A stretch of DNA of 64,000 bases from Lepidodermella squamata (Eukaryota > Animalia > Gastrotricha), in the NCBI GenBank assembly GCA_047495785.1, contig JBLDXI010000012.1:1-64000 (forward strand), in the 5' to 3' direction. Below the pieces are notes generated by a model. That model searched no databases. It worked only from the letters and a program-made list of their open reading frames with translations, and had not been told where the DNA came from. This document shows positions 1 to 41,203 of this stretch, one piece after another (the stretch's first letter is position 1; each line of letters opens with the position of its first letter). A program made the translations under genes and the position numbers.

Positions 1-473
1 ACACAGTCTTTTATAAGCAAATTGTTCTTTGATCCAAGCTGATCAAAATGCCTCAAAATTTGGTGCATGTCTTTACCTCGCGCTCGAAGCATGCTGTAAT
101 ATAGAGCCCATAAGCCGCAGATTTGTGAAAAAACATGCTGGTAAGACCTATTGCAATGAATGTACGGCACTTCTGTTTGGCTATTCGCTTTCAAAAAGTT
201 GTCGATATAGAGGTTATGATAGGAAGGGGAAAGGTTAAGGCTATCGAAAAACTCACAGGGCTCATCAGGATGCTGTGCGCTGTGAACAAACAGTGTGACC
301 CAGTGCTTTCCTGTAGAATTGTATACATTTCCTGTGTTACAGATAATCAATTGTGGATTATTTTTCACAATAGGAAGCTGCTGTGGTAGCTGATCAGCGG
401 CTACAACAAAAATGTCAAACTTTTTTAGTACTGGATCAATCCGGATGAAATCTTCCAATTCATTGTTGTACAT
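1..473 (-). CDS. Adenain-like cysteine protease (Polinton PRO), runs off the window
   Basis: Manual translation from ATG 473: MYNNELEDF...LIICNTG...GKHWV...EFFDS...YQHVFSQICGLWALYY, giving the His/Asp/Gln/Cys motifs. No stop in the window, so it is missing from the ORF track. Confidence 0.9.
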   Translation of the reverse strand, partial: MYNNELEDFIRIDPVLKKFDIFVVAADQLPQQLPIVKNNPQLIICNTGNVYNSTGKHWVTLFVHSAQHPDEPCEFFDSLNLSPSYHNLYIDNFLKANSQTEVPYIHCNRSYQHVFSQICGLWALYYSMLRARGKDMHQILRHFDQLGSKNNLLIKDC

Positions 474-483
474 GAAAAACTGC

Positions 484-1974
484 TTAAGAATCAACAATTA
501 CGTCACGCGTTCGTGTGATCTTAAAAAATTTGAATTTTAAGGCAATTTTAATTTTATGAAAAAAGATGATACCTCAAAAACTGAATCAGTTTCAGTTAAT
601 ACTAACAGCTGAGTAACAATTGTTGTTTGAACAGCAAAACTCAACTCTACTCTGCAGGTACCTGTGCGTATAACTGAGTAATTTTGCAACGAGGAGTTGC
701 GCGATAAATCGAAACCAAAAATTGTGAAGCCATTAATAAACTGATCCATAGTTAACGTAGATGCCTTGAAAGGGTTATCTGGGTTGATAGCATTGAGAAG
801 CTCCAAATAGACTCTGGTGACATCTCCATTTGCAAAATCCATTTCCAAGGGAGCTGTTGAGTGATGTAGTTCATTGCCCAAATAAATCGATATTCGGGAT
901 AGCTGGCTGTGTAATGCATTCAATGGATTTTTACCCGCCGTTCCATTCAGGGCGGAATCTTCAAAAAAACAGAAAAACATACGCCTTGGAAGCTTACCAT
1001 TAATACATTGTGGTATCTGTTAAACCATTAGAGTTTTAAAAATTGACTTAGAAACGCGCGATGAGCAAACTTACACTGTAACTCAAAACACTACTTGGTA
1101 TGTGAAAAAGCCTTGTTCGAACTCTCATTATAGGATATTTGGCGTTAGTTTTTTCCAGCGCACGCGTATGAGCAATCACTATGTCCGGCGACACAACAAC
1201 AGCCCGGGCAATAATTTTTGCAGATTCAATGACGATTGAGTGAGGATCAGCTGTGCTCGGCCCAACCAAAGCAAAATTGTTAGATGCCCTATAGAGCTTG
1301 ATGCGGACTTCAACATTAGGTAGAAGTAGCCTATTACACAGCATAGGATCTGCAAACAGGCGTCCCAGGGTGCACACAGATTTCCCGCCCTGAACAATTT
1401 CCAACCGTTTTTTAAATCCCTCGTTTGAATTGTCAAAATTATCCAGTTTTTTAGCTGTATCAGGATACCAAAATTGTGTCTGTAATATCGTGTTTTTTGC
1501 ATCAGTATTATGAGACAAAAGCGTTGAAATATAGGCCCGATAAGCGTATAATGAATTTTGTTCACTTAAAAGTTGCCCATTTAGTGAAATCTCGCATGTT
1601 TTGAACATTGTGTGGTGGGCTAAACAAAGCGGGGCTTTTTGTAAATTTGTAGCCGAAAGACTAGCCTTATACTCGTTGTATGCATCGTCAGCTTCGCCAG
1701 CATTTTTCTTCCGAGCTTCAGAAGGGGTTCTAACTACTTTCCACTTGAGCATCAGTTGCATGCGTGACAGACACAAATAATCATTGTACGGGCCGATTTG
1801 AAACTCAATCAGGTTCGGTGAACTATTAAGAGGGGCAATTGGGTAAACATCTATACTTATTTGGTTTTCTTCAGCAAGCTGTGAAGGCGGTACAGTAAAT
1901 AAATCTAAATCTGAAGATAATACTATTGAAGAGGCTGAGGCTGGGTGAACAAAATTATCTCCAAAGCCTTCCAT
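484..1974 (-). CDS. Major capsid protein (double jelly roll), 3 exons: 1974-1075, 1016-573, 519-484; 459 aa
   Basis: LDLFTVPP, YAYRAYISTLL, AKYPI, NG...KNP and GFTIFGFDLS motifs. Two phase-0 GT-AG introns restore GKLPRRMFF and the C-terminus VFEITRTRDVIVDS*. Confidence 0.88.
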
Positions 1975-2007: not shown

Positions 2008-2550
2008 TCAAGACGCTTCAAATAGCACTGATTTAGTTGTTGCGCGTCTTTTCCTTTTATAAGCCTTTCTTTTTGTAGTAGAAGCACGGCGCCTACGTTT
2101 TGCAGTCACACTACTAGTTTTACTAGGGCCACGACGACGGCGCCTTTTACGGCCACCTCCACCGCCTTGATGTTGCTTCAAAGCCGTTTCAGCAATATCC
2201 TTAGCCATGTTTAAGGCGCCTGAAGTGCCATGACGCTTAAGGGATTCGGTAAAACTAGGTCTAGCGCCCTCAGGTTGTTGCATATCACCTAATATTTTTT
2301 GGCCAGTAGATAATGCTTGTTGAAAAATAGACGGAGCAATTACTGGGAAGAAATTTCTGAAAAAGGCACCTAATATATTTCCTATTCCCTGACCCCTATA
2401 ATGATATGGAAATTGAATTGTTGCCCCACGGAAATGGTCCAGGTTAGCACCCGCTCCAGCTCCATAGCCTGCTATCAGCGGGGAGGAGTGTTGGCGGAGA
2501 AAAAACTGCTGGTACTTGTCAACGTTTTGGTTAGAATAAGCTAGGGGCAT
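2008..2550 (-). CDS. Arg/Lys-rich virion core protein (pVII/pX-like)
   Basis: YQQFF..Q, FRG and RGQGIG..L..FFR..FP pattern; highly basic C-terminus (RKRRRRR); located between mCP and MCP. Confidence 0.75.
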   Translation of the reverse strand: MPLAYSNQNVDKYQQFFLRQHSSPLIAGYGAGAGANLDHFRGATIQFPYHYRGQGIGNILGAFFRNFFPVIAPSIFQQALSTGQKILGDMQQPEGARPSFTESLKRHGTSGALNMAKDIAETALKQHQGGGGGRKRRRRRGPSKTSSVTAKRRRRASTTKRKAYKRKRRATTKSVLFEAS

Positions 2551-2588: not shown

Positions 2589-3809
2589 TTAATATAAGGC
2601 TCCGGTTTTTCGGCGAATATGAAGTAGCAATACAACTTTGCTACCATCCACAAAATCGATCAATGCCCCGTTATCGCGGCGGATTTGAACTTGAATTGAA
2701 TCTATAAAATTGGCTTTTAAAGGTAAATATAGGCCCGAGTTATAAATCACTGTAAAATGTGATGACAAGTCTGAATTTGCCGTAGCAGAAGCCATCGTAG
2801 AATAGGTTATCATTCGAAGGAGGCTAGCTTGGCAATCTCCAACAAAAACATCCGCTGCAACTGAGCAGTAAATGAACAGTGAGTTATTGCCATAATTCAA
2901 CTGAATGTTGTATTGAGCTGTAGCACTTTCTTCATAGCATGCATAAATAAAGGCAGGCGGTAAATCATTATCTTTGGTGATTACTGTTTGCTCAGAAAAA
3001 TCAAAGTGCTGTGCTGAATTTACGCCTTCTTGATTTTCTACCGCCGCTGTCTCATTATTTGCATCCTCCTTAAGTTTTGGTCTGCTAGAAAGCCTAACAA
3101 TCCCAACTGAGTTGAATAAAATGTGTGGATTTTCACGAATTTGGTGGCTCATATTCCACGCATATGCCAAGGCATACGTTGACTTTATATCAAAAGTGGA
3201 AACTTCATTAAATTCTGGCTCGTCATTTTTTGGGGCCTTGGGAAAAATGAAAACTCCAGACGGTGTATTCTGTTCTATTGGAGACACAAAACCTAAGAGG
3301 CCAGCAGAATCTGAAGGTATAAACATAGAATATGGCCATTTACAGGTAATTTTAGTTTTTTTGTTGACTGAATCATAATGAGCAAAAATAGAGCCATTAC
3401 TACTTGAGATGGATATTTTTTCATTAAAGTGATCGATTAGTTTGGTTATATTCGCAAAATATTCACCTCCGAAATTTACTTTGTTAATAAAGCCAGTTTC
3501 CCATGGATTGTTGAAACTTTTCATCCGATGTGGCAAAGAGCCAGGATTTGTTAAATAATTAGCAATAATGTCGTTTTTAAAAGATTTCAGCCAGTTACAA
3601 TCAAGCACATAGACTGTATGACGATCAATGCTACTCCACCTAACAGGAATTGTAGCCTCAAGTAGGGCTACTTCATAAGCACGGCAATCGGGTACGCAAA
3701 TTGGGACAGGGAGAGCAACTTGATAATCCGACGGAGTATTCGCCGGATGTTGAGAATATGAGGCATTCGAGGGTAAATAAATAAAGAAGTCCTCCTGGAT
3801 GCTAAGCAT
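2589..3809 (-). CDS. Minor capsid protein (penton-like)
   Basis: N-terminal FFIYLPSNAS..PANT.SDY.V.LP..YEVAL.E and C-terminal LFIYCS..VGD..LLR..YLPL..I.VQIR..G..IDF..LHIR. Confidence 0.85.
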   Translation of the reverse strand: MLSIQEDFFIYLPSNASYSQHPANTPSDYQVALPVPICVPDCRAYEVALLEATIPVRWSSIDRHTVYVLDCNWLKSFKNDIIANYLTNPGSLPHRMKSFNNPWETGFINKVNFGGEYFANITKLIDHFNEKISISSSNGSIFAHYDSVNKKTKITCKWPYSMFIPSDSAGLLGFVSPIEQNTPSGVFIFPKAPKNDEPEFNEVSTFDIKSTYALAYAWNMSHQIRENPHILFNSVGIVRLSSRPKLKEDANNETAAVENQEGVNSAQHFDFSEQTVITKDNDLPPAFIYACYEESATAQYNIQLNYGNNSLFIYCSVAADVFVGDCQASLLRMITYSTMASATANSDLSSHFTVIYNSGLYLPLKANFIDSIQVQIRRDNGALIDFVDGSKVVLLLHIRRKTGALY

Positions 3810-4005
3810 TTGTTATGTTATCCTTATCTATCTTTTCTAAAGTAAGGATTGCGCTGTTGCCAAAAGGGGGGAGCTTAGTTTTGAATAAATAGTTTGAAAT
3901 TTCTATAAGCCAAACGGTTATTAGAAGGAAAAAAATGTAGGCCCCTACACGCACAGATGGCTTTTGTAGGAAAGCTAAGAGTGGAGTCGTAGGAACTCTA
4001 TTCAT
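3802..4005 (-). CDS. Small single-pass membrane protein of the Polinton
   Basis: ATG-initiated 67-aa ORF overlapping both neighbours; hydrophobic stretch VGAYIFFLLITVWLI. Confidence 0.5.
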   Translation of the reverse strand: MNRVPTTPLLAFLQKPSVRVGAYIFFLLITVWLIEISNYLFKTKLPPFGNSAILTLEKIDKDNITNA

Positions 4006-5213
4006 GAGGCCAAGGTTTTGATCTCGTTTGCATCAATCCAACTAGCGGCTTCAATCGGCCAGTTTTGCCATTTCACAAGAGCCTGTTTCTTGCCATTTAT
4101 AGTGCGATGCTTCAGAACTTTTTCTATTAAATATGTTTCTTGCGGATGTGCTATCTGAAGCTGCCAATCGTAAAAACTACCTTGAATACGCTTATTCAGA
4201 GTATCACGGAGATAATACTTGTCGGGGATGGTACAAGTATCTATGCGGTCGATAAAAAAATATTCTTCAGTAAAAATGAAATCTCCTTCTTTGTGAAATA
4301 AATCCTTTACACGACTAATTCTAACACAATCACCGACAGAAAAAGTCGGTTTGTATAGTAAATTCTTGCGCTTTTCAAGCATCAATTGATCTCTTTTTCC
4401 AAAAACATTATTGTAAGCAACCAAATTTATAGGATCTTCTGGGGAAGCTAGCCATAATTCTAACGGGGCAACCCTAGTGCTGCGATTTTTCATTTGATTG
4501 TAAGACGCTAAGAAAAAAGGTAAGTAATCGATGTAACGCAGCGTATGATTTGCAATTTGATGCCTCGAAATAGTTCTACGAAGCCAACGGTTGAAAATTT
4601 CTATGGGTGAACACTTGAACATGGAGGTTGTAGTGTAATAATAAACATTGAATTTTTTAAATATTTTTTTAGCTTCTTTGTTGATAAATTCTCCGCCAGA
4701 ATCTGTAGTGAAAGAGCGGCAACGCAAATCAGGTGTTAGGCTGCTCAAAAAATTACTGATCTTCTCAGCAGTGTAATTTCCTTCTTTGTTAAGTAAGGGA
4801 ATACAGAAAGCATAACGCGTAAAACAGTCTTTGATTGTAAGTAAATAGCGGGTTCCATCATTATCTTGGCTTGAATCTTGAACTTCAAGAAGATCACCTA
4901 GAAAGAGGTCACTTCTAGCATAAACTTCATATTGCATGAATTGCTTCCGGTTTCTTACACTTAGTGGTTTATATAATGAATATGTTCGATCATGGCTCAT
5001 AATCTCAGCTAGTTTTTTATGAGTAAGGGAATTTCTCAGCTCTAAGGGTAATGTAGCTTTAAGTGTTGAGTATAATCTGCGCAGGCCTTGAAATGATCCA
5101 ACATGTTTCGGATCATTATAGAAGCTCAAAACAAACGATTTCAAGTCTGACCTGTGGTTTATTTTAGCATCTCCTTCAGCTAGACGTCTCGCATTGTGTT
5201 TATTACGTGGCAT
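4002..5213 (-). CDS. Retroviral-like (RVE) integrase with C-terminal chromodomain
   Basis: DDE motifs GDLL, TDSGGEF and IEIFNR; F.VGD.VRIS; chromodomain YLIEKVLKHR...LVKWQNWP...SWI. Confidence 0.95.
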   Translation of the reverse strand: MPRNKHNARRLAEGDAKINHRSDLKSFVLSFYNDPKHVGSFQGLRRLYSTLKATLPLELRNSLTHKKLAEIMSHDRTYSLYKPLSVRNRKQFMQYEVYARSDLFLGDLLEVQDSSQDNDGTRYLLTIKDCFTRYAFCIPLLNKEGNYTAEKISNFLSSLTPDLRCRSFTTDSGGEFINKEAKKIFKKFNVYYYTTTSMFKCSPIEIFNRWLRRTISRHQIANHTLRYIDYLPFFLASYNQMKNRSTRVAPLELWLASPEDPINLVAYNNVFGKRDQLMLEKRKNLLYKPTFSVGDCVRISRVKDLFHKEGDFIFTEEYFFIDRIDTCTIPDKYYLRDTLNKRIQGSFYDWQLQIAHPQETYLIEKVLKHRTINGKKQALVKWQNWPIEAASWIDANEIKTLAS

Positions 5214-5216
5214 GAC

Positions 5217-5486
5217 CTAATTCTTCTTTATAGCTAATTTACGGCAAGTAGGGACAACCGAACAATTAGCCATGTGGCTAAATAAATCACCGTTTAAGTG
5301 GAATAATAAATCATTTATATTATATAACATCCGCTCAGTAGACTCGACAAGTTGCCGCAGGTGAAGGAGTTCGGCTTGAGTATTGCGAACTTCCATAACA
5401 GCGAAAAAGCTGATTAAAATGGTAACCAGGGATAGCAGCAATAGGATCGGTAAAACAGCACGCGGAATATCTGTTGTTTGATGCAT
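5217..5486 (-). CDS. Small membrane-anchored or secreted coiled-coil protein of the Polinton
   Basis: N-terminal hydrophobic helix, then a heptad-like segment and two Cys. Confidence 0.55.
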   Translation of the reverse strand: MHQTTDIPRAVLPILLLLSLVTILISFFAVMEVRNTQAELLHLRQLVESTERMLYNINDLLFHLNGDLFSHMANCSVVPTCRKLAIKKN

Positions 5487-5650
5487 AATAAATTACGAAG
5501 ACTTTAAAAACGGGGAAATTTACCGATAGCCATATTTTTATTTCTGCTGCGAATTTTGAAAATTGATAGATAATGATGAAAGTAGAAATAATGATTTTAG
5601 CTTAAAAAAAGACGGCACGCGATTAATCTTCCCTCATTCATTAAATCATT

Positions 5651-6762
5651 TTATTGTTGTTTGATATACAGAAAAAAAGGCGCCAATTTAACAAATGCTA
5701 TTTTTATAAGAGATAACGAAAAACAGCCGCTCATAATCATTTTTCCAGTGTGAAACAGTGTGGCAGATACATTTAACTTTGGTTCATTTTCATTAGTGCT
5801 GACTTTGGAGAAAACACGTATACGCAACCCAGGAAAAAATTCTGGTTGGTAAACGCATATTTTAGGAAATTGAAAAGCTAGCAGGCTAAGATTGACAGTT
5901 TTATGTAAATCGTAGAACAATACTATATTAGTAATTATTGGGTCACGGATTATCAACCGTCGATTAACAATTTTTCTGAGTGTAGCTTGAAGAACTCCAA
6001 AAGCAGTAACACAATTCGAGGCTGTTTTGGTACCACTACAAATTATAGCTCCGGATGAAAATAATAAAAACGTCGCGTTAAAAGCAGGTACTTTATAGAA
6101 CAAAGCACTCGACATTTTTTTTGGGTTATATTTTGCACAAGGTAAAATTAGGGCTAGACTATCTAAATTAAATAGAAAATTTGACCTTGATTTAGCCATA
6201 ATATTTGAAATAGAGTAATCAATATCATATTGTATATTATTTACTTCCATATTTAATGGTGGGGATTTCAATAGAAAAAAAGGTTCAGTGCTAGATTGTA
6301 GCTTTAAATCAACAGGATAGGATATAGTCAAATTTATGATCGTGGTCGACTGTGATGCGGCTGATTGAAGGCTTGTAACATACTTGATTTCAGCTGTTTC
6401 TGTTTGAACTTTGCGATAGGTTGAGGGCAAATCATGACCAAAAAAGAGGCGACAGAATCTTGCTTTCGTGACTCATGATTGGTAATTGGAACAGCTGGTT
6501 TATTTTTCGCCTTGCATGGCGTTTTCGCCGATTTAGCAACTGATTTCTTCTCAGTACCTATGACTTTTTTCTGAATTTTATGTTTAGCATTGCGTTTCGG
6601 TTGATTACGAACCGCAGTTTTTGCTAATCTAGAGGCTGATGTTTGTTCAACAGGTTCCTTGGTAAACGTACTCGTATTCGGTTCATTCAGGTTTATTGGT
6701 ACGAAATCATTGTTAGAAAAAAACAATGGAGAAGCCGGAGATGAATTGAAGAAAGCTTCCAT
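5651..6762 (-). CDS. TATA-binding-protein-like gene; apparent frameshift at A6 run 6440-6445
   Basis: Both TBP half-repeats present: NIMA..NLDSLA..AKYNPK..ATFLLFSSGAIICSG and NIV..VNLSLLA..YQPEFFPGL..ATLFHTGKMIMSG. The upstream Lys-rich ORF (ATG 6762) joins in frame if one T is added. Confidence 0.85.
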
Positions 6763-6930
6763 AAATTCAGTAAGAAGAATAATATTCAAAGTTCTTGCGT
6801 TTGAAATGAAAAATGATCGAATGACGGAAGCCGGCCGCGGTGATTGGTTGGAGTTGCTGAGCCCCAGAACCTTCTGATTAGGAATGAATAAATAACAAAG
6901 GCATTATATAAATAAAATAAACTGACCAAA

Positions 6931-7737
6931 TTAGGTCGAAGAGCTGTTGTTGAAAGGTAAGACGGTAGCGACAGGTTGTAGTGCGATGGAGCGTTGCATG
7001 ATGCCCGGCCATTTACTATTCGCACCTTCCTGCTGACCATTAAGAACATCGATGACTGATGCCCATGGAATTTTCTGAGCGTGTTGATAGGGTGGAGGTA
7101 CGACGTTCTGCATTTCTACTGAGACCCTACGACCTGCCCGAAGTAAAAGGTAGAATATGTGCCGCAGGTTTACGCTGACACCATTAAAGTTTTTTAACAA
7201 ATCGTAAAATAAATGTTGGATGTAGATATATCGGCCTTCGGTGTAGGTAGGGTGTGCCGTTAGGCCATACCAGAAACTTTCTTCCAGGCCAGACACAATA
7301 ATAGGGTTAGGGCTATCGTCGAGGCAATCATCCAAAAGGTAATCACTTTCAGTAAAAATAATTGAGTGACAAATGGACGACCATAAATCATCCTGGCGAA
7401 CAAGGAGCGTGGTAGTATCATTTAGGATGCTCTTCCATAAATCATGCCCAACGATGGAAGCACAGGTAGCTAAATTATATTCGGCAAAATGTTGAAAATT
7501 CGTGCCATCGTGGGTTGATGGGAAGAGACGAGCAACGGCTCTTTTGTAGCCGAGATAAACATGATCGATAGTAATATGTTGGCCTTTCGAGTTGGCAATC
7601 AAATCGAATATGGCGACTTCAGCGAATGTAATGCGTCCAGAGAGGGTATTTAGTGATATATTTAATGATTTCGGAGGAAAAAGTAAATCTTCTCGGTAGA
7701 AAATCGCTTCATAAGATTCATCATAGCCAATAATCAT
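6931..7737 (-). CDS. Uncharacterised Polinton protein with a two-copy internal repeat
   Basis: 268-aa ATG ORF; pattern GR-x9-DL-x2-N-x2-G-x6-H-x6-RA-x2-R occurs twice. Confidence 0.65.
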   Translation of the reverse strand: MIIGYDESYEAIFYREDLLFPPKSLNISLNTLSGRITFAEVAIFDLIANSKGQHITIDHVYLGYKRAVARLFPSTHDGTNFQHFAEYNLATCASIVGHDLWKSILNDTTTLLVRQDDLWSSICHSIIFTESDYLLDDCLDDSPNPIIVSGLEESFWYGLTAHPTYTEGRYIYIQHLFYDLLKNFNGVSVNLRHIFYLLLRAGRRVSVEMQNVVPPPYQHAQKIPWASVIDVLNGQQEGANSKWPGIMQRSIALQPVATVLPFNNSSST

Positions 7738-7819
7738 AGCAACTTATTTGACCTTGCTATCCCTACCTTAATCTTTGCTTTTATTCGATTTTCCTTGAGT
7801 AAAAAAATGTTTCTTATAT

Positions 7820-8060
7820 TTTTTAGATTACAGTTAAGTTGGATTGATAGGAGAAAGTAAAGTTTATTTACAAAACAAGTTAATGGACATATCAGGAAAG
7901 AAAGGAGTATTTATAAATGCTAATGGCCAAAGTAAAAAATATTTATTATATTTTAGATTAAAGTTAAGGGGGATTGATAGGAGAAAGTAATGTTTATTTA
8001 CAAAAAAGGTTAATGGAAAGTAAGGTGTATTTATATAAGCTAATGGACAAAGCAGGAAAA
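7820..8060. repeat. Degenerate ~130-bp direct repeat (2 copies) between divergent Polinton genes
   Basis: TTAGATTA.AGTTAAG..GATTGATAGGAGAAAGTAA.GTTTATTTACAAAA at ~7823 and ~7953. Confidence 0.75.
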
Positions 8061-8130
8061 AAGATGAGCTAGCTTGAGTTCTTAGATTACTGTATCTAAT
8101 CAAGTATCTTTTTGGAAACTAAGAAAATTG

Positions 8131-8406
8131 ATGGAAGCAGAAGACATGTAAGTTTGGTTCTTTTTTAAAAAATCTTGAATAAATTCTGTTATGTTTAGTC
8201 GTGAACGCTTATATCAAGCACTGCTAAGCATTGACCATCTGCAACGAGCAATGACAGCAGCTATAAACGAAATGTTGAACACACAATTGGAGGTTGAACA
8301 ATTGATCAATGATGCATCACGATTTATGATAGCAACTCGAGCAAGAGATCAGGCATGCAGCCTAGATTGTGGTGATTGGAATTGTAATTACTGTTACAAA
8401 GATTGA
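8131..8406 (+). CDS. Small spliced helical protein with a C-terminal 4-Cys cluster (exons 8131-8147, 8199-8406)
   Basis: GTAAGT...TTTAG 51-bp intron gives MEAEDIRERLYQALL...CSLDCGDWNCNYCYKD; AATAAA follows the stop. Confidence 0.55.
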
Positions 8407-8571
8407 AAAATTAAAAATAAATTATCATGTGTGCATTTTTTATATTACAAATTAATTCCCAGAAAGAATGCAAAAGCATGACTCATAATAGTTTTAGAAA
8501 AAAAGTATGCCCGCTGTATATTTTATCATAAACATTGCGTACATTTATGGGGCAACGGATAAAACGCACTT

Positions 8572-8772
8572 ATATATTTATGTGAAACGGTTATAGTAAA
8601 AATGACCGTAGTGCTATTACTGATACAACGCTCGTATATTTATGCCAAATGGCTATAGTAAAAATCGCCGTACTGCCATTACTGATCCCAAATTGCGTAT
8701 ATTTATACCAAACGGCTATAGTAAAAATCGCCGTACTGCCATTACTGATCCAAAGTTCCCATCCTTACTACT
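8572..8772. repeat. Polinton terminal region: three 62-63-bp tandem repeats plus ACTACT end
   Basis: TATAGTAAAAAT..CCGTA.TGC.ATTACTGAT at 8592, 8654 and 8717. Confidence 0.85.
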
Positions 8773-10014
8773 CAGTGCGAGTAGCGAGTCGTCGGTTAAA
8801 CACGCAGGTGACGATTGTAATCTTAAATTTAGGCGAACAAAAAATCAATCGAAAAACAGTAATAATAATAATAATCAAAACAATAATAATAATTATATTT
8901 TAAATTTGAATAATAATTCGCAATCTCCCTTAAAGAGGCCTTTAGTTGAAACCACCGGCGTCGATGGTGATTGTTTGCCGACTACAGCAGCCAAGCTGAC
9001 AACAACGCCAACGTCCAATAATGCGGCGATGCTTGTCATCTTATGTGAGCTTGAATCGTGCATATGAAATGCGGAAAAAATAGGATGAACTCTCACGTCG
9101 CCACAATATGTATAATAATGATATTAAAAAATGTTGCTAAAATTATTCTAGAATATTCTGAATTTATTCTGTTGTCTCAAGAAAGGCTGCTTTCAACTGG
9201 TGAATTTTAACTGTATCATCTATGTCGCTGGTGACGGACTTGTTATTTTTCTCATTTTTTCTTCGATTTTTTATTCACCTGGTGGTCGCTGTATTCTTAT
9301 ATATTTGAAATACCTGAAGAGTGAAACAGCGCGCTATATGCAGATGAAGGATGATGACACCGATCAATAAAAAAATAAGAAAAAAATTATAATGACTAAA
9401 ATTTGCTCACTCACTTTTGCTTTTGTCATTTTTATGATGATTATTATTGAATAATTTGTCAACAGCGCGTAAAATATTATCTATCATTATTGAATGATAT
9501 ATATGTGTATTTTTTCTATAATTTCTTCATCGCCGCCGTGTAATTTTCGCGGATATCAAAATGAGTATAACTTGTCGCAACTTGGGGAGAAATATTTTTG
9601 TGAGAAATATGTATTGTATTATTGCGATTATTTTAATTCTATTCTTCTACATCTGATATTTCACGGCGTGTGTTTACAATAATATTATATGAGCGCAAAT
9701 AATAATGAAGAAATGAGCGTACGAAAATAAAATGCCAAAAAACGAGTGACGAAGCTGCAAAGATACGACGAAGTTCATTTTGCCGGCTTATGTAAATCTA
9801 ATTTTTATGACGCAGATATCGTTGCATTTGTATTCATCGTACCTGTTGCTGATCAATTTAGCAGCCAGTTCGTTGATTTTAGCTGATCTATATACAACAT
9901 CAAATTTAGGCGTCATATCAATCAGATTACAGGACTTCGAAAACGAAAGCTGGAAAATATTTTCGAGCCCACTCGATTTCATTTTTCTCGAAAATTAGAA
10001 TTTAGGTGAAAAAA

Positions 10015-18635: not shown

Positions 18636-19034
18636 TCATTTATTTTTGTTCGAAACACCTCGGGCAAGTAATCGGTAATTTTCTTGATGAGTAACGGTAA
18701 TATTGAACCGTGGCTGGGTCCTTCGAACACCACTGGCCGTCGCAGATGAATGCGTGCGTCGAAAATGCTTCACCGTTTCCAACAATTTCTGCAGAGATAA
18801 TTCAGGTTTCGGCGTTGTAGTCGGTAGTCGGGCGAATAATTTTGAAGACCTAGCATTAGGCTCAGCTCGAAGTGCCACATTAAGCGGCTCTTCAATGTCA
18901 TCATCGGTTAGATTCAGCGATTCGCTGCTATCAGACGGCATCGCTGCGTCGTTGATATCAGCTAAAATCATGTAGCTTGAACTTGATCGGATAGCGGCGA
19001 GACAACATATTGCTAATAAAAATGGAGTCCTCAT
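18636..19034 (-). CDS. Secreted LxDIND-motif protein
   Basis: Signal peptide then YMILADINDA; C-terminal PRFNITVTHQENYRLL; TATA ~80 bp upstream. Confidence 0.8.
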   Translation of the reverse strand: MRTPFLLAICCLAAIRSSSSYMILADINDAAMPSDSSESLNLTDDDIEEPLNVALRAEPNARSSKLFARLPTTTPKPELSLQKLLETVKHFRRTHSSATASGVRRTQPRFNITVTHQENYRLLARGVSNKNK

Positions 19035-20483
19035 TATAGCAAAGCTGGGAAAAACCGAAATTGAACTTGTGACCCAAAAATCCTGGAAAATTCGAACTTC
19101 ACAGGTGGAGTTATATATTCGAAAAGCTATCACGGAAATTATTAAAAAAATCGAACGGACGGATAACAAACCACCCACTATTATTTCGTCTCAGGTATAT
19201 TGATGTAAAAATACACTAAGTTTGATTGGTTGAGGCTTTTAAATATATATTTTCAGACAAAAATATAGTGGCGCAGATCGGTTTCGAAACGCATTTTGCG
19301 TGAAAACAGGAAATGATTGATAATTTAATAAGTCTAAGAGCCAATTTTCGCCCTAAGACGCAACTGCTCCATGACTTCTAGCCGGTCGATTATGATTGAT
19401 TAGAGTAGTCTAGAAGCTATGAATTAAGGAAATAGGTCGTTTTTCGCAAGCCCATGCTGTGTTAAAGCACTGCTTGGAGCTTTAAAAATCAACAAATAAC
19501 TTAGGTTCTGGGCAAAATCGCACTTTCAAGGGTTCAAAATCAGCGCCGAAAATTGAAAATGATGACGAATTTATATCAAATGTATGATTACGAACTTGTA
19601 ACGAATCGCGGGAAATCCGTATGCTACCAAATGTACGTAGAATTTTCCCACGCGCGCAAAATTTTGAACTGATCGATTTTTTGCAAGCAAAAATTCAAAT
19701 AAAATAGCGGGAATATTCTACTTAACATCATAACTTTTTATCCTTTTTTAATATTTTAAAAATTTTAGGTAAGAGTTTTATTTGATTTTTAGCCAATTTG
19801 AAAAGTTTTGGCACAAAGATGGATAGTCATTTACTAATAGGTGATGGGTGTGCCGAGTGGACCCAATAAATTGTCGATTTAGCACTAAATTTGAGGCTTC
19901 AGGCTTGATTTTGACATGATGATTGTTTCGATTACCGAGAAAATTTTTCGGGACAGAAAATATGATAAGGTCAGATCATTTTTCCCACAGGTGAAAGTAT
20001 GAGCCTTACTCAGTTTCATTCGTAGAATATTTTGAACAAACAATTTTCAATTATCCGCCGCTGCTGGAACCCCTTAGTACGAATATCCACAACGTATTTT
20101 TTACTATACCTTGCCTAACCCATGGATCATAGATCGCACCATCACGTGTATTTTCAATATCAGCGATCAGTTTATGAGTTAAAATTCAGCATACACAGCC
20201 GATATCTCTTTCTTGTATTGATTTAACAAATCAGTGATTCCGATATCAGCAGTGCGACGTAAAATTCCGTAAATTTATTTACGAAGCTGAAGGTACCTAA
20301 CATGAAAAACCCGTGGATGTACTACATAATTATTGATCAAGGCTGAAATCACAAAGAATTGGAAACATCGAAAATTCTGGAACTTCTGAATTTTAGAGGT
20401 GCGTTATTTCTTGTTTATTTCCGAAGTTATTAGCTAAAGAAATATGATGAAAATTGATATACTAACATTTATCAAACACATCA

Positions 20484-20894
20484 TTACATGTTAGGTTTAA
20501 TAGCAGCCACCCTAGGCAGTAATTTGTAGCTTTCATTGCGAGTAATCTTGATGTTGAAACGCGGCTTTGGCTTCAATTTCGAACCCGAGTTGTAGTCGAG
20601 GACTACCGGCGCCATTGGCTGATTGGCGCCTTTACTCAACCGCCAAGAATTGTACATTTGCATGCCATTGCCTGCCATGATGCTGCCGGTTCGAGCCATC
20701 TGATTCGGGTAAAAAGCTGAACTGTCCAGCTGCTTATCTTGCTCTTCACTACTACCGTCAACATCAGGATTTTCCAAAGCCTCTTCATTCATGTCGGCTA
20801 GCATCATGTAACCCTGTGATACTTTGAAGAGGCCACTTATCAGCGAAATATTGATGACAATGAGAAGCTGGCAGAACTTTCCAGAGCTAGCCAT
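20484..20894 (-). CDS. Secreted LxDIND-motif protein
   Basis: Signal peptide then YMMLADMNEE; C-terminal PRFNIKITRNESYKLL, paralogous to 18636-19034. Confidence 0.8.
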   Translation of the reverse strand: MASSGKFCQLLIVINISLISGLFKVSQGYMMLADMNEEALENPDVDGSSEEQDKQLDSSAFYPNQMARTGSIMAGNGMQMYNSWRLSKGANQPMAPVVLDYNSGSKLKPKPRFNIKITRNESYKLLPRVAAIKPNM

Positions 20895-22810
20895 GCTGAA
20901 ATAATTTGTCGCTGAAAAATATGAAATCGCTATAGTTTTCGTCCCAATTATATAGGAACGTTCAATCAGTCCCTACGTCCTATTTAACCGTATTATCGGA
21001 AAAAATCTGGAAAATGCGGGTATATGACTCAAGTACGATTAAATCGAAGCGTGGCGGCTTTGCCGATGGCTTATCTCAGTTATTTGCTGATTCATAAAAA
21101 ATAATCCCCGCTTTGAAAAAACATGCTATTTTATTATACCGGAAAGTACACTGAATGAGAATTATTGCCACACCTATGACGCGGTAATTAAATAAATTAA
21201 AATCACTATCGCATTAATCTAAAACAACTAATGAGGGAAGATATCCACTTAATTGCTGCTTATGTAAGGATAATTGGGTTTGAGGTAGTTTCATGACCAA
21301 GTTCCGAGGAACATTGAAGAGCTATACGTTACATTCGCGCACAACTAAATCAAAGGTCCTTTACATTTCGATGGAATTTTGTGAAATTCTGTGCCATTTG
21401 CGCCAATGACGTTTATGCCAAGACATTTGCCCGAACGTTAACTGCGCTGAAAATGCCATTCCTACATGCGCATGGTAAAATTTAGCCATTGGGAAATTGA
21501 ATTTCTCTATAGCCCTCGATTCGTTTGGCTGCGCCAAACTTACCCGGGGTTCCAGATCGTGGGGGGGGGGGGGGGATTTTATTTCTCCATGGCTAGCCAT
21601 AGAGTATTCCCTTATTGTTTGTTTTTATTAGCCCGGTTTTTAGAGCAATGGTAAGTTGCGCGATAGCGACACTCGCATTTAGAAATCATATTCCAATTCC
21701 CTTTAAAGTTTCGAAACATTCCAGGGGCCGAACGTACCTTCATGAAGATTCTCAGGAATTTCCGATACAAAAAAATCAACCTCGGTTTATGGAACGAACC
21801 TCGGTTAAAGTATTTGAAAAGTGCATGTCGAAAATCCAAGTCTTTTTTATCATTTTTTGGCGTAATTTATCAACCTGCTGGTTCAACAGGAATATTAGCT
21901 TTCCTTATGAGAATTTTTCTTTACTTACACAGTAACACAGTAACATGAAGGTCCGAAACTAAGGAAAATTGTTCAAAAATTGCAAAAGTTACCCACTTTT
22001 TGTGTGGGTATTTTGGCCGGAGAAAAAAACCGATTTTTTGCGTCTAGATGACGGTAGCTGATCACTTTTCATACCGCAAATTGTACTCAAGAAAATCCTC
22101 GGTTAATTCTCTATAGATAAGTCGAAAAACCGAGGAATTCGATCCGCTCTATCCAAGTAAAAACGATCGGGACGAAGTGGGGTAATGTGGCCGGATGACT
22201 ATTTCACTCGAGAAAACTAGCGAAAACTAGGCCGATGATTCATCGCGGTCACTTTTGGATAACGCGCACATTTTAACGGAAACTTTATTCGACAAAATCG
22301 GTCAAGTTACCCCATAAAATTCAGGAAACTAAAGCTCTTTTGATTCCCGCGCAACAGATTTCAAAGTCCAAGGTATCGTTTGAAAGATGTTGTTGAGAGG
22401 AATCTTTGGGGGAGGAGGGACTAATTTGTCGTTAGGTTAAACAATTCCGAGATATAAACGCTCGAAATCTCGAGGCCCAAAATCGATGCGAAATAATTAC
22501 TAATTTTCGAATTCGGAAAAATGGAGGTTGTAGCATTGGTGCCAATTCCTGCCGTAAAACTAAATTGACATTTTGATAAGGCATGGAAAACCAAACTCGC
22601 CATGAAACTCTTCATCGCTATAATTATACAGTTCAGCATTCTATTCAAAACAGAAGCATGGCTATGATTATTTATTGTCTGCCGTCTGCCACCGTTTCAC
22701 CGGTCAAAGTGTGTTATTTACATATTAATAAGAAATGGTAGCTTCAGGTAAAAATTAAATTTGTTCAATTGACATTCTAGCGACGCGTAGCGCCCATCAT
22801 AGCCGACAAT

Positions 22811-23056
22811 TTAGGTCCTGCTTCGTTGTTGTAGGCGATGAGCCTGGTTGCCTGGTTGATGAAAACGCGCGTTGGCTCGTCCACTTTTCAGCATCAGCAG
22901 ACGCGCTCGAGATGACGCAGCTGCCGGTTGGTTCAGGCTGAGATCATCCTTCAGATCAGCCATCAGCTGGTAGGCACCAACCTCCGGTGTTGAAAACACG
23001 GCTAGCGAGGCGACTAAAACGAACAGGGCGCACAGCTTAACAATGGAACAGCTCAT
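22811..23056 (-). CDS. Secreted LxDIND-motif protein
   Basis: Signal peptide then YQLMADLKDD; basic C-terminus. Confidence 0.75.
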   Translation of the reverse strand: MSCSIVKLCALFVLVASLAVFSTPEVGAYQLMADLKDDLSLNQPAAASSRARLLMLKSGRANARFHQPGNQAHRLQQRSRT

Positions 23057-25003
23057 TTTTTGTGGGTATAAATTGCTTAAAAAACCTAGTATATCGAATT
23101 AAAAGGTGATAAAATAGTAAAACGCGGCAATTAATTTCCGAGGTCACGAGCATATAATGAGGCGGAAGGAAGGCGGATATTCCGCTTATAGCTCTCAGGG
23201 TGAGTTGCAAAATTTTAAACGCGCTTCTAGAGAAAAAAACATGGGCGATTGAACCATCGGCAAATCGTGCGGAAGAGGTGCGAAGAGAAAAAATTAGCCA
23301 AGAGGTTATTAGCCACGTGCGTCGTGCCAGCAGAATATAATTGAAGTTCGACCGCGCCTTGAGTTTGCGAGGGAGTTCGCTGGCCTGCTAATCAGAAACG
23401 TTTACAACACCGCGTCATCCAAGTTAGCGACAAAAAACGTGATAATTTATACAAATAATGACCCGTTAGTAAGTAAAGCAGTAACATGGCGTGGTGAATT
23501 AAAAATTATGAAAATCAAAATTCGGTGTGGGGGAAATAATATTTGTTGAATCACGGATTAAAATGAAGAAAAATGTTATTTCAGATGTTTACACCTCGAT
23601 ACTTGTTATGCATCAAAGAAAGTGTGTCAAAAAACAAGTAGGTAAATCTATTTTTCAAATTGACATGGGACAATCTGCTAATGGCAAAACAAGTTGTTTT
23701 CATATTTCATCGGCGTCAACTTGTTACTTCCGATAGAAAGCGCAGGATTTCCTGATATCGATTGACTTGCCAAGCCTTGAAGATCTTCAACGATGATCGA
23801 TTCCGTAAAAATTAATTCGGATTTTTGTCGCTATTTCTATCAATTATCCTCTGAAATGAGGTAATCATTACAAGAAATTGAGCGTATTTTTAGTTGAAGA
23901 TTAATATTTTCGTCACTCAGACGTTGACCTTGAAAATCCTCGTTGTTTGAATTTCGCACTCTTGTTCACACAAAAAATGGAAAAATTGTCGTTATTAACC
24001 GTGATGAAATTTTTTTTACGGGGCCAAAAAGGTGACTTGCAATATCGAAGCCACTCATGCGTGGCTAAAACTCTCGCAATCTTTCACCATTCAGCCGGGT
24101 TTCCATGATAAACCGCCGTCAGCTTTTTCAGCAGAAATAAATTATCGACAATTCAGTATTCTTTTTGGAAGACTTAAAAATTGTTGCTATGCCTACCTCA
24201 TTTTATTTGGAAAATTTCAAGTTCATTTCTGCCCTAAAAAACGCTCTGATAGAGATAATTTTTTCCAAATCTCATAACGGGTCACAGCCGATTTTTTTCC
24301 AGCACTGATGTTCAAAAAGATCGAAATCATTTAATCGTTAAAGTACAGGACTTAGAATTAAATTAAAATAAAGTGAAGAGCGCAAGCGCTTGAATGTCAA
24401 GTTCGGAAGTTCTGAGTGAAACCCGAGACAGAAGTATGACGATTTTCGTTCTTTTCGGGTGACAGGTGACACTCGTGTTAACCTGAGTGATATATTTGTC
24501 TGACGGCAAATCGTCAGGACCCATTTTCATCAAATTGTAGTGTTCCACTTTACGGCAGAATTATTTTATAAAAAAAAGTCGGAGCTTCGAAGTTTCCGTT
24601 CTCAAAAAAGCCGAAAACTTGCCGATTTTCGCGATGAGAATTTTCAGTCTTTCACCAAAGCTGCTGTTTACCGATCGGCGACTTCCGTCAAATCCCTGAA
24701 AAAAGACACGTCTATAGCGATTAATAACTCGACGATAGTGTGATCCATTTTATCGATAACCTGTCTGTTGCCTAAATACCTAAATCCCACGCATCCTCAC
24801 CATGCTCGTCATTCGAGTCATGTGCTCTACTAAGTTCGGCGAAAAAACCCGGAAAAAACGGAAGAGAACAGTTAATTATAATGTTCCACTGCATTATTTT
24901 TAGCTGAGGAGCCATTAACATCTAATTATCTAAGCTGTTTATGTCTGAGGAGTAACGAACTTGACTGCTATATACGCTTTAGATCACCTCAGTCTCGCTA
25001 AAA

Positions 25004-25393
25004 ATGAATTTGATTTTCCAACTTTTCCTTACTACGTTTGCTTTCGTTTACGCAGTTTCGGCTTTCGGTTCTTTGAACGACATTTCAGACGACATTGCAG
25101 CTAGCCGAAATTCTGCGGACGCGACGGACGACATCGACGGGGCGGTGCCCTATCGTGAGAATTGGGAATCGCTCAAAAATCTGCTCGCAACTGACCGGCG
25201 AGTTTACAAAATGGTTCAGAACTCGCTAGCCGATCAGCAGACGTTGATAAAACAACGGCGGCAGAAAGCTTTGAAAGAACTGCGCCAACGACTCAATTTA
25301 CATAACGCCACTTCACCGCATGGTAACCGGCGGCGAAAGTTGCGAAAGTTCGAATACGTTCAAATGGTGGAAGAAATAAATTTGCCCCACTGA
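25004..25393 (+). CDS. Secreted LxDIND-motif protein (FGSLND subfamily)
   Basis: Signal peptide, FGSLNDISDDIA, C-terminal RKLRKFEYVQMVEEIN. Confidence 0.85.
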   Translation: MNLIFQLFLTTFAFVYAVSAFGSLNDISDDIAASRNSADATDDIDGAVPYRENWESLKNLLATDRRVYKMVQNSLADQQTLIKQRRQKALKELRQRLNLHNATSPHGNRRRKLRKFEYVQMVEEINLPH

Positions 25394-27112
25394 ATCTTTA
25401 ACCTTATCCCATTGATTGGAAAATATTACGCTGGATCGGACATTTTTCAAAAGGATTAATAAAATTTTACGCAGGCTTAATTTTTATGGTTAATTCGTGA
25501 CTTTTTCTGAATTGTTTAATTTAATTTGAACTTCGGACTTGTTCAAGTCGTCGAAAAGTTCGCACTGTGGTATATTTTTCGGTTTCGGCCACTTTCAGCT
25601 TCGAGCCATGTGAATTCTTTTAGGCCTTTTTATAGGCGGCGATCTTATAGGCTAGAAAGCCCTCCTGTCGGAAATCGGCGGACCGAGCTGGAGTTTTTCA
25701 AAAAATTGGGTCAAATTCGTTGCAAGTGGGCCCAAGTCATAGCCTGGTTTAGGGAGATCCGGCGAAACTCGTCTCATAAACTCCACTTCCCCAATAGGGA
25801 TTAATACCCTGGTTAATATCGTTAGCGACGTTGAATAACTCGGATTTAGGCTTGTTTACCTCCGTTTCAAGGTGAGAGGTGACAAGTAAAAAGTCTTTTA
25901 TTTTTGCCTCTTCATTTACGCAAAAAGCCGCTTTTTACTCTACATATGTCATATGTAGAGTTCTGCTAAGGTCTCCTCTAGGATTGAAGATCATGATAAA
26001 TCTTTGCAAGAACGACTTGGAACTTGGATCTTTTATGATTGCACTTCATAAGGATCTTTGAAGAAATGAAAAAAGCAGGTCACTGAGGGCATTCACTTGA
26101 AATGAGGGTTATTTTCGAAGCCGTCCAGCAGTCGATAACGTCAGCCTTATCTGACGGAAAATGGCGCAAAGTTTAAAATTGCTCATAATTACATGTGACC
26201 TACTTTTTGCCAGTAGCTTTTTCTATTGCTATGATTCATTTCCAATTCTAAGGATTTGCGACAGGGACCAGTTTCGATTTTTCCCAATTATCGGCGATCA
26301 ACCGGGTGAAATTAGGAATTTTGCTCAAGGGAAAAAGAAGTTTCCCTTCCCAACAACCACCTTAAAACTGGCGAAAACAAGCTTGAGTCCGCCTTTTTCA
26401 AAGACGCTAACGATGTGGCACTCAGACATGGAAAAACTAGTTTTTTCCAGAATTGGAATTTCTTGATATACCCAACTCAAACCGACATGTTTTCACCTGA
26501 TTTTTAAAAACTGTGTAAGACAACAAATTAAGTACTATGTGCCTATTATTATACCTAATGCGAATATTTAGACAGTCGTTAGTCGTTAATGCAAATAATC
26601 GTAATTTAAATTACACTGACACATCATCGCATTATATGATTTGATGTCCTTTACCTGTTAACCCGGTCACTGTTGCTCCAACGAGACCTGAATGAGCCCA
26701 GACCCATACCGGTGATCTTTTCTACCTGTCGGTTTACACAACTCTGATGGCACTTGCAGGTCGGCTATATGTCTGGGTTCTCCGGATTTGATCTAATAGA
26801 CATTAGATTCTTATTCTCGGATTTCCCAATCTCGTGTTATACGAATCCTAGACGGAGACAACTGATTAGTGATGTACCAGACGAATATAGATCACGGATT
26901 TCATATACTCATCTCTTCATGTTGACTTTGTGTCCTTTCAGCCGAATTATTAGGGTAATAGCTTCGGTGACTTGAAATTTTATAATTGAATTAATTGAAT
27001 TAGAATTTTGTAACCCAAGGTTCGGAGATATATAGGCTGAGCAGATCATGATCTAATCATTTTCTGACGATTTAGAACCGAGTGAAGCTAAGTCTGTTTT
27101 TATCTGCATTTT

Positions 27113-27505
27113 ATGATGATCCTCTACTTGCCTATTCTATTCTCGACTTGCTTCTTCGCAAGCTCTGTCCTGTCATTCGGATCTCTCAGCGATATTTCAG
27201 ACGACATCGCCTTGAGTAAGGACCAAGAGGAACTTTCTCCAAGCGATAACGAGGAAACAGTTGTCCCTGCTCGCTTCAAATGGGACGCTATTCGAAACCT
27301 GAATCTAGCATCTGATCCCAAGGTCTACAAACTAGTGAAGCATGCCCTCGGCAACAAGCTCAAGCGTAGTCGACTGATAGCTCGAAGCAAACTTCGCGAG
27401 CAGTTTGGGCTGGGAAAATCTAACAAAATCACGACAACTCGACGACCTAAATTGCGAAAGTTCGAACGCGTGGAACAAGTCGCCGATATAAACATTGCAG
27501 CCTAA
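27113..27505 (+). CDS. Secreted LxDIND-motif protein (FGSLND subfamily)
   Basis: Signal peptide, FGSLSDISDDIA, KLRKFERVEQVADINIAA. Confidence 0.85.
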   Translation: MMILYLPILFSTCFFASSVLSFGSLSDISDDIALSKDQEELSPSDNEETVVPARFKWDAIRNLNLASDPKVYKLVKHALGNKLKRSRLIARSKLREQFGLGKSNKITTTRRPKLRKFERVEQVADINIAA

Positions 27506-28288
27506 AAATTTTGCCTAGAACTTGCGTTTTTAGTAACAAATAAAACAAAATGACCGTTAACCATTGGAAAGTTGGGTTTGGCGAATTTTCTAAATTTTCC
27601 ATTCATCAAACAATCAGCGATGTAAAAAATCACAGCAATAGTTACGGTACGGCGACAAAACAGCAACCTCGCAAAAGAGCGAATGCGACAAAACAGCAAC
27701 CTCGCAGAAGAGCGAATGCGACAAAACAGCAAATTTTTTATTAAGCGATAAAACAGCTAAAACTTACCATTAAAAGATGCATCGTATTTCTGCTGTTTTG
27801 CCGCAAGTTGAAAAATTTGCTGTTTTGTCGCGTTGGCTGTATTGGGTATTTGCTGTTATGACGGTCTGCCGGTCACTTTTGTTCCATTCAGACCTGACTC
27901 AGACCGGAACCATACCGGCGACTTGTTTTTCTACCTGCCGGCTTATACACAACTGGCACTTGCAGGTCCTGGATTCTCCGCATTCGATCTAGTCATATCC
28001 TCCCGACGACGATATGCTCCGATTTCCGAATCTCGTGCTACGAATCCTAGATGTAGACAAATTATTCGTGCTGTACCAGACAAATATAGAGCACGAATTT
28101 CACACTCATCTCTTCATCATGTTGGCGTGGTGTCCTTTCAGCGCATCTGTGTGAAGCCTTGATGATTCGAAATTCTATAATCTAGTAATTCAAGGGTCGG
28201 ATATACACTAAGCAGATGCGCATTTTCTGACAGTTTAAAACCGGCGAAACTAAGCCACAATTTGTCAGTATTTATCTGCGTTTTAAAG

Positions 28289-28678
28289 ATGATGATTTAC
28301 TTGCCTATAATTTTCTCGACTTGCTTCTTCGCAAGCTCTGTCTTGTCTTTCGGAGCTCTCAACGATATTTCAGATGACATCGCCTTGAGTAAGGACCAAG
28401 AGGAACTTTCTCCAAGCGACAGCGAGGAAACAGTTGTCCCAGTTCGCTACAATTGGGACGCTATCCGAAACCTGAATCTAGCCTCTGATCTCAAAATCTA
28501 CAAACTCGTACAGCAGGCCCTCGGCAGTAAGCTCAAGCTTGGTCGGCAACTGGCGCTAAGAAAACTTCGCCAGCAGTTGGGGCTTGGAAAATCTATCGAA
28601 AGCGCGGCACCTCGAAGACGCAAATTGCGAAAGTTCGAACGCGTGGAATACGTCGCCGATATAAACATTGCAGCCTAA
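28289..28678 (+). CDS. Secreted LxDIND-motif protein, tandem duplicate of 27113-27505
   Basis: Close paralogue; upstream DNA also duplicated (26660-27110 resembles 27865-28288). Confidence 0.85.
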   Translation: MMIYLPIIFSTCFFASSVLSFGALNDISDDIALSKDQEELSPSDSEETVVPVRYNWDAIRNLNLASDLKIYKLVQQALGSKLKLGRQLALRKLRQQLGLGKSIESAAPRRRKLRKFERVEYVADINIAA

Positions 28679-28718
28679 ACATTTCGCCTAGTAACTCAAA
28701 TAAAACAAATTAATAATA

Positions 28719-31376: not shown

Positions 31377-31724
31377 ATGAAACTTAAGTCACCTTTGATT
31401 CATGCTGCAATTTTTTATGCAATTCTAGACGTCATTCTCGCGTTTGGTTCGCTCAATGACATCGCCGACGACATTGCGAACAGCCATCAGGAGAAGAGCC
31501 CCCAAGCCGATGGGTGGAGCATGGGCTCGATAATTCGGCAGATGAAAAACCCCAGCGTCTACAGAATCGTCGAGCAAAGCCTGGGCGAATTCGGCGATGA
31601 AAAAACGCGAGCAAAACTGCGCCGCATGAAGCAGAAAAGCAGCGATAAAAAATCGAAAAACGACAAAAAAATGAAAAAATTTCAGAAGGTTGAATATGTT
31701 GATGACATAAATATTAGTGATTAA
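31377..31724 (+). CDS. Secreted LxDIND-motif protein (FGSLND subfamily)
   Basis: Signal peptide, FGSLNDIADDIA, KMKKFQKVEYVDDINI. Confidence 0.85.
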   Translation: MKLKSPLIHAAIFYAILDVILAFGSLNDIADDIANSHQEKSPQADGWSMGSIIRQMKNPSVYRIVEQSLGEFGDEKTRAKLRRMKQKSSDKKSKNDKKMKKFQKVEYVDDINISD

Positions 31725-36929: not shown

Positions 36930-37129
36930 CAGTGTGGTCTGATACTAGTGCAGGGGGCGAAGTTCGTTCATCTTTTTAATGAGGAGCTTGGAAAAATTTA
37001 TGAATTTCAAGAGTTGCTTTTCCATAGAAAAGATCGATGTCGCAATTCATGAAACTCTTCAATATTTCCAAGCTCCTCATTAAAAAGATGAACGAACTTC
37101 GCCCCCTGCACTAGTATCAGACCACACTG
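36930..37129. mobile_element. Tc1/mariner-type MITE, 200-bp hairpin
   Basis: TA|CAGTGTGGTCTG...CAGACCACACTG|TA with long perfect inverted arms. Confidence 0.9.
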
Positions 37130-41040: not shown

Positions 41041-41203
41041 AAAAGAGGACTCCTTCCTAGGAGAGGTATCATAAAATAATTTGATGACGATGGTCAGTGA
41101 TTAAAATTGCGACATAAAAAACTATAAAGACAGTGATGTTTTGTTTTAAAAACAAACTGCATCGACACAGAGTTTTCAAGTTAACTCTCTCCGAAAAATC
41201 AAA

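Follow-up and report, generated by a model that had tools for sequence, protein, structure and literature searches.

The window analysed here, the whole stretch of 64,000 nucleotides, opens with 8.8 kb of a Polinton-like element, and inside this element lies an intact gene for a TATA-binding-protein (TBP)-like protein. The features of the element are as follows.

1..473, minus strand: Adenain/Ulp1-type cysteine protease with the motif order H-D-Q-C, crossing the window edge
537..1974, minus strand: putative major capsid gene in two ORFs (1048–1974 and 537–980), with a 3′ intron (520–572) in RNA-like contigs
2008..2550, minus strand: putative basic core protein, 180 aa (ORF only)
2589..3809, minus strand: putative minor capsid protein (penton), 406 aa (ORF only)
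4002..5213, minus strand: retroviral-type integrase (Pfam rve, E 1.7e-5, below the curated Pfam cut-off) with a C-terminal chromodomain (Chromo, E 6.4e-7)
5217..5533, minus strand: small ORF encoding a hydrophobic stretch, spliced at intron 5471–5523 (in two runs)
5651..6250, minus strand: TBP-like gene, 199 aa, core only (Pfam, AlphaFold2, Foldseek and alignment; covered unspliced by an RNA-like contig)
6334..6762, minus strand: basic low-complexity ORF, 142 aa, in a frame different from that of the TBP-like gene and starting inside the 3′ UTR of the upstream gene
6931..7737, minus strand: ORF of 268 aa with a spliced 3′ UTR (intron 6874–6926) and a poly(A) end at 6677
8573..8772, no strand: element end, with 2.9 copies of a 63-bp repeat containing TATA-like words; the terminus reads 5′-AGTAGT on the minus strand

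Polinton/Maverick termini begin with 5′-AG. Such a terminus is present here, together with the retroviral-type integrase, a sequencing depth raised about 20-fold and loose contig ends. These ends lie at 8651 (in two runs), 8772 and 8773; the one at 8651 is consistent with an inverted repeat ending there on its inner side, and 8651–8772 is probably the terminal inverted repeat. Beyond 8772, depth drops from about 1900 to about 80. With the terminus fixed by its 5′-AGTAGT and by this fall in depth, the TBP-like gene lies within the element, as a preliminary description of the sequence had proposed, and shares the strand of the integrase, the protease and the putative capsid genes, also as described there.

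The labels of the major capsid and minor capsid (penton) genes are ones we presume from Polinton motifs, and we take the ORF at 2008–2550 to encode the basic core protein. Profile searches with the capsid ORFs gave no match, and a single-sequence fold of the major capsid protein was uninformative (pLDDT 32.5); the gene is likely spliced across its two ORFs. The protease has weak matches only (Peptidase_C48, E 0.023; ASFV S273R, E 0.7), and the 268-aa ORF has none in Pfam, NCBIfam or PDB, with Atlas scores below 0.9. Searches of Pfam, NCBIfam, PDB and the Atlas with the element neighbours of the TBP-like gene returned no TFIIB-like gene, and no RNA polymerase of the element's own was seen in its 8.8 kb within the window. 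Genes for PolB and the packaging ATPase would sit past the left window edge, where the element continues.

The three element introns in RNA-like contigs (520–572, 5471–5523 and 6874–6926) are each exactly 53 nt long with GT-AG ends, and the last of them is located in a 3′ UTR, 4 nt past the stop codon. Upstream of the 268-aa ORF, at 7804–8017, we observed two 84-nt repeats that are 85% alike, with CCATTA words recurring beside TATA-like boxes. Elsewhere in the window, a cluster of small predicted secreted proteins whose members share an FG(S/A)L(N/S)DISDDIA-like start (18636–31724 and 48655–49122) is flanked by host GPCR-like, neuropeptide-like and ankyrin genes, and several long inverted and short tandem repeats at 36928–43640 resemble non-autonomous DNA transposons.

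The TBP-like ORF is open throughout its 199 codons. Pfam family PF00352 matches it at E 1.1e-24 in two stretches that correspond to the two direct repeats, and all 35 matches in a PDB sequence search are TBPs or TBP fusions. An AlphaFold2 model built from a 19-sequence alignment has a pLDDT of 92.9 and resembles eukaryotic TBPs with a TM score of about 0.8 in Foldseek (0.80 with an rmsd of 2.3 Å for yeast TBP), so that a saddle fold is predicted, with a 10-residue insertion in repeat 2. Both repeats reported in the preliminary description are therefore present, the structure prediction that it had suggested as a check yields a confident TBP fold, and the divergent first stirrup that it had pointed out, YNPKKMSS, is found at residues 41–48.

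The same description had treated 5651–6762 as a single gene, which does not hold: the region contains two ORFs in different frames, the TBP-like gene at 5651–6250 and the 142-codon ORF at 6334–6762. Contigs of a DNA-like run (X1) span 5874–6285 and 6311–6900 gap-free and list no indels at the 1% level; the separation of the frames is therefore real and not an assembly error. Profile and homologue searches with the 142-aa ORF found no credible family match.

We judged the copies of the element from short-read contigs, whose depth does not translate strictly into copy number. In X1, the per-contig depth amounts to 1678 for the TBP-like gene, 1631 for the integrase and 1740 for the capsid ORF, compared with 81 for the flank, and 114 of the 141 contigs placed on the window are at least 99% alike. 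This points to about 20 near-identical copies of the element. Since the depth of the TBP-like gene equals that of the integrase and capsid ORF, about 20-fold above the flank, nearly all of them appear to carry the gene, contrary to the possibility, raised earlier, that it is absent from other copies. The near-identical copies yield no dN/dS for the gene. At 1–334, the DNA-like depth is merely 142, compared with about 1700 elsewhere in the element, reflecting either a missing contig or a stretch where the window copy differs. X1 and a further run, X2, also contain an empty-site form at 8773 whose frame, read by hand, is open and continuous with that of the flank, and X2 splices 8805 to 8934; the insertion looks polymorphic and located inside a host coding exon.

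Runs X2 and X3 were classed as RNA-like by their behaviour, namely the skipping of 53-nt GT-AG introns, and neither is recorded as RNA. Intron 520–572 is skipped in X2, and introns 5471–5523 and 6874–6926 are skipped in both runs; the poly(A) end at 6677, found in X2, follows an AATAAA signal. One X2 contig (5524–6687) takes in the whole TBP-like ORF without a gap, in agreement with the intronless gene described previously, on the evidence of the single RNA-like contig that spans it. X3 leaves the ORF uncovered, which proves nothing about expression, and RNA-like contigs give neither strand, start nor level. X2 contigs are by far the deepest over 6677–8680, from the 268-aa ORF into the long terminal region, at about 400–800 compared with 33 at the TBP-like gene, a depth that cannot rank genes by expression. 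Translation of the TBP-like ORF is predicted to start at 6250. Seven other ATGs lie between the X2 contig end (6687) and this position, and the 5′ end of the mRNA therefore matters.

To identify the residues retained by the TBP-like protein, we transferred yeast numbering via an alignment with a fungal TBP and compared the 17 yeast DNA-face positions given in Table 1 of PMC12529657. Nine of these are identical (N69, A101, L114, F116, N159, V161, F190, P191 and F207), compared with 28% identity overall; six are conservatively changed (V71M, V122I, T124S, L189F, V213I and T215S), and the remaining two are non-conservative (F99M and L205T). Three of the four DNA-kinking (intercalating) phenylalanines are retained, the equivalent of F99 being Met46, which adjoins a one-residue insertion. 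The central asparagine pair is identical (N16 and N108 in the TBP-like protein), and serine replaces both central threonines. The conserved concave face suggests that the protein binds DNA, and F99M, L205T and the two Thr-to-Ser changes suggest that its box preference is altered.

The protein has changed most on its convex partner surfaces. The basic patch of helix 2 is mostly lost (K133, R137, K138 and R141 become V, G, V and A, and K145 is kept), and the equivalents of R90, E93 and R107 are altered. Helix-2 basic residues and first-stirrup residues have roles with TFIIA, TAF1, Brf1 and Mot1, and their loss may have freed the TBP-like protein from control by these factors. In the second stirrup (Q135-P-E137), yeast E186 is replaced by Q, but E188 is kept as E137, within a Y-x-P-E-x-F-P-G stirrup that is largely kept in the other short TBPs aligned as well. 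The equivalent of E188 is described as the main TFIIB contact in the accessible text of PMC10005294, and contact with TFIIB is thus plausible for the TBP-like protein; the same text reports that TRF2 has lost most of its intercalating phenylalanines.

In a comparison with 12 TBPs of cellular, viral and metagenomic origin, core identity to the TBP-like protein ranges from 24 to 32%: 25–28% to fungal, nematode, rodent and rotifer TBPs (which are 66–74% identical among themselves), 29% to an archaeal TBP, 24–25% to two giant-virus-type TBPs and 27–32% to five short metagenomic TBPs. In a homologue search of 1.84 billion representatives, the best 150 of 1196 matches are 25–40% identical, and none of the 1196 reaches 1e-30. 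The nearest Atlas cluster comprises 54 proteins of about 206 aa and is mostly eukaryotic, with Nematoda as the commonest phylum among the 12 with a record. We built trees from rows picked by hand out of 276 proteins and 139 loci, leaving out TRF2 and the host's own TBP. With 49 rows, the TBP-like protein falls outside the canonical eukaryotic TBP clade on a long branch that carries a long-branch warning; with 25 rows, it groups with four short metagenomic TBPs at 90/92, and a clade with six animal TBPs is marginally rejected (AU p 0.043). Its branch measures 2.3–3.4 changes per site. High core identity, a basic helix 2 and nesting, as expected of a canonical eukaryotic TBP orthologue, are all absent. 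A recent host capture is excluded because identity to the 12 TBPs compared is merely 24–32%; the trees name no donor. The preliminary description had allowed for a recent dead capture nested within host TBP: the gene is intact and 25–28% identical to cellular eukaryotic TBPs, and its position outside them in both trees holds subject to the long branch, the marginal AU value and a sampling that excludes TRF2 and the host TBP.

An X1 contig that matches only 6193–6231 runs on in register with TBP-like, non-canonical residues when read by hand, and a similar partial match occurs in X1 at 7124–7167, inside the upstream 268-aa ORF. These matches hint at a second, diverged TBP-like gene or a sister family in the same data. 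A word-based homologue search gave one match among 192 candidates, and in the alignment search canonical TBPs and giant-virus-like ones predominated. Viral contigs scanned with single proteins (P0001, the window TBP, an L061 neighbour and a capsid ORF) gave no match. Alignment scans returned 20 viral loci and one repeat, and the 15 of the 20 read by eye are giant-virus-like or archaeal-type; a degenerate DNA pattern scan gave 38 loci, none with a TBP. No TBP adjoins genes like those of the element in 58 viral or 80 metagenome loci, collections that hold few animal elements; of the metagenome set, 26 of 64 parts were scanned, and 80 of the 495 stretches confirmed there were retained. Two of the 80 metagenome loci, L060 (1.9 kb) and L061 (2.4 kb), carry short FHTGK-type TBPs. 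These genes (L060:193–729 and L061:674–1207) are intronless; each has an insertion in repeat 2 and the change L114N, and its start is overlapped by a basic ORF. Their neighbours resemble Polinton accessory genes, and the two TBPs possibly come from other Polinton-like elements; Pfam and homologue searches left the Polinton identity of these neighbours unconfirmed.

A sequence word search for promoter elements gave the following candidate boxes.

2052..2064, minus strand: CTTATA-led candidate TATA box, some 90 nt upstream of the start of the putative major capsid gene
2598, 3909, 5710, 8039 and 17 (start positions), minus strand: like candidate boxes

The coding strand has six CTTATA words compared with 3.05 expected, a count not clearly above chance. 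Four of them precede the starts of the core protein, major capsid, minor capsid and small ORF by 48, 89, 100 and 177 nt, respectively; of the other two, one is 302 nt ahead of the 268-aa ORF and one is at the window edge, at which another gene may begin. Placement within 20–200 nt upstream of a start codon is found for four of five testable sites (p 0.005, uncorrected, for a word chosen post hoc), and CTTATA ranks sixth of 780 hexamers in this respect. GCTTATA occurs four times compared with 0.94 expected, and TATA[AT]A[AT] 15 times compared with 7.4. TATAAG is not enriched here (5 compared with 3.0 expected; two of five upstream), TATT[AT]AA has four coding-strand sites compared with a value of 3.2 obtained by scaling from the window's host portion, and no CTTATA is found within 200 nt before the TBP start. 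Most CTTATA sites extend as near-canonical TATA boxes that host TBP could read. The signal, post hoc and weak, is suggestive of CTTATA-led boxes serving as element promoters.

We favour, with a probability of about 0.55, a mechanism in which the core-only TBP homologue of the element binds TATA-like boxes of the element's own genes and recruits host TFIIB and RNA polymerase II without TFIID. The protein would dock on the boxes ahead of element genes, and the kept second-stirrup glutamate (E137) would bring in host TFIIB and then the polymerase. Loss of the first-stirrup and helix-2 residues would make this step independent of TFIID and let it escape TFIIA, TAF1, Brf1 and Mot1. The integrase and virion genes would be the targets, as CTTATA-led boxes lie upstream of several of them. 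The redirection of Pol II put forward in the preliminary description would fit the residues that the TBP-like protein retains.

DNA binding by the protein might also serve an end other than initiation, with the protein acting as a TATA-box repressor or decoy, or as an architectural factor on the 63-bp terminal repeats in replication or packaging. The extent of change on the convex partner surfaces and the glutamine at E186 would suit such a role, as would the TATAAATA-like words in the terminal repeats; moreover, near-canonical boxes may not need an activator of the element's own. Nevertheless, the protein retains both the Y-x-P-E-x-F-P-G stirrup and the glutamate equivalent to the main TFIIB contact, whereas KSHV ORF24, predicted not to bind TFIIB, has none of these acidic residues, and we regard a repressor or architectural role as unlikely. 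A gene captured long ago and now carried as a passenger, multiplied to about 20 copies by the burst of one master element, would account for the very long branch, the lost phenylalanine, the absent X3 cover, the upstream ATGs and copies too alike for a signal of selection. However, despite a divergence of about 70%, the reading frame has stayed open, the predicted fold is confident and conservation is concentrated on the DNA face, and a second diverged copy is hinted at; a passenger is thus improbable.

A further alternative concerns gene structure and is compatible with a promoter factor: the 142-codon ORF and the TBP-like ORF might form one protein of ~370 aa through translational recoding, with a basic low-complexity N-terminal domain as in cellular TBPs. 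Upstream of the TBP ATG, the frame has no stop for a further 74 codons (the chance of a run of roughly this length is below 1% at local composition) and overlaps the 142-codon ORF. Codon scores in this upstream stretch are mildly coding-like, and the overlap contains one slippery-type heptamer. Off-frame codon scores are, however, in the same range, the downstream structure is weak (-4.6 kcal/mol), an element-type intron is absent and the RNA-like contig is unspliced. In addition, the 142-codon ORF starts 5′ of the poly(A) site, and in L060 and L061 the basic upstream ORF also overlaps the short TBP but in the opposite frame relation, so that we give recoding little weight. The intronless structure and the nearest Atlas cluster, mostly eukaryotic and richest in Nematoda, could finally point to a retrocopy derived recently from host TBP or TRF2, or to a host gene adjoining the element. 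Both are highly improbable: identity to cellular eukaryotic TBPs is only 25–28%, and the gene has element-level depth and sits between the integrase and the terminus. Weighed against the known features of TRF2, a sequence absent from the trees, the three kept phenylalanines and the TBP-type second stirrup argue against that origin.

Compared with cellular TBPs (yeast 1ytb/1rm1, human 1cdw and archaeal 1d3u), the element's protein shares the two-repeat saddle and the equivalents of N69, N159, F116, F190, P191, F207 and E188. It differs in its 25–29% identity, in F99M, L205T, T124S, T215S and E186Q, in the mostly lost helix-2 patch, in the 10 residues inserted into repeat 2, in having no N-terminal domain and in its location inside a mobile element. 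The beta- and gammaherpesviral vTBPs are likewise viral TBP-like factors that work with host Pol II, and the gammaherpesviral proteins also have polar residues at L205 and T215 (PMC12529657, in the text available). According to the accessible parts of PMC12529657 and PMC7498053, KSHV ORF24 is a protein of 752 aa whose N-terminal domain binds the Pol II CTD, which needs five other viral proteins and which reads TATT; the former adds that it lacks the TFIIB acidic residues and is predicted not to bind TFIIB. In contrast to vTBP and its complex, vPIC, the element's protein is a 199-aa core without a Pol II-binding domain and with no partner protein found for it, E188 is kept and TATT is not enriched. 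Nucleocytoviricota and Mirusviricota also have TBP-fold genes (BFVD matches; loci L001–L003; PMC10132985, as far as accessible), but mostly encode their own RNA polymerase, of which none was seen in the element's 8.8 kb in the window. Two loci of this type are 24–25% identical to the element's TBP, and no grouping with them is supported in the trees.

In the searchable literature on Polintons, from which subscription papers and repeat-database entries fall outside, the sole precedent is the label 'TBP' among the genes of MELD viruses in the legend to Fig. 5 of Starrett et al. 2021 (PMC8502044), which is the same in the preprint (10.1101/697771). These viruses, with an adintovirus-like PolB, likewise represent a midsize linear dsDNA virus or element with a TBP-like gene in the neighbourhood of Polintons. 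The comparison is by label alone, as the gene appears in that legend only, in a section on non-animal datasets and without analysis. In the animal adintovirus maps (Fig. S2, PMC8502044), the readable text does not include a TBP label, and the text and one supplementary file of the nematode Polinton paper of Jeong 2023 (PMC10748475) contain no mention of TATA or TBP. The concern that such genes are already common in described Polintons is therefore borne out in part, by the MELD label; a Polinton TBP is barely described in searchable papers.

The TBP gene is intact and fixed in a recently spreading, transcribed Polinton-like family, and its retained residues suggest a function. We propose tentatively, at less than even odds, that it is part of a private initiation switch of animal Polintons, in which a TBP acquired anciently by the element lineage has kept its grip on TFIIB, dropped TFIID control and recognises a shifted (G)CTTATA box, thereby activating the genes for integrase and virion proteins. 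If true, this would be about the smallest viral system for Pol II redirection, simpler than the six-protein complex of herpesviruses. The timing of Polinton genes and the switch to particle making have been little studied, and an element-encoded basal factor offers a direct handle on them through the protein, its candidate boxes and its host partner TFIIB. Such a factor would also provide a natural TBP variant in which DNA and cofactor surfaces are both changed, and would add transposon-sized elements of animal genomes to the large DNA viruses in which TBP mimicry is known.
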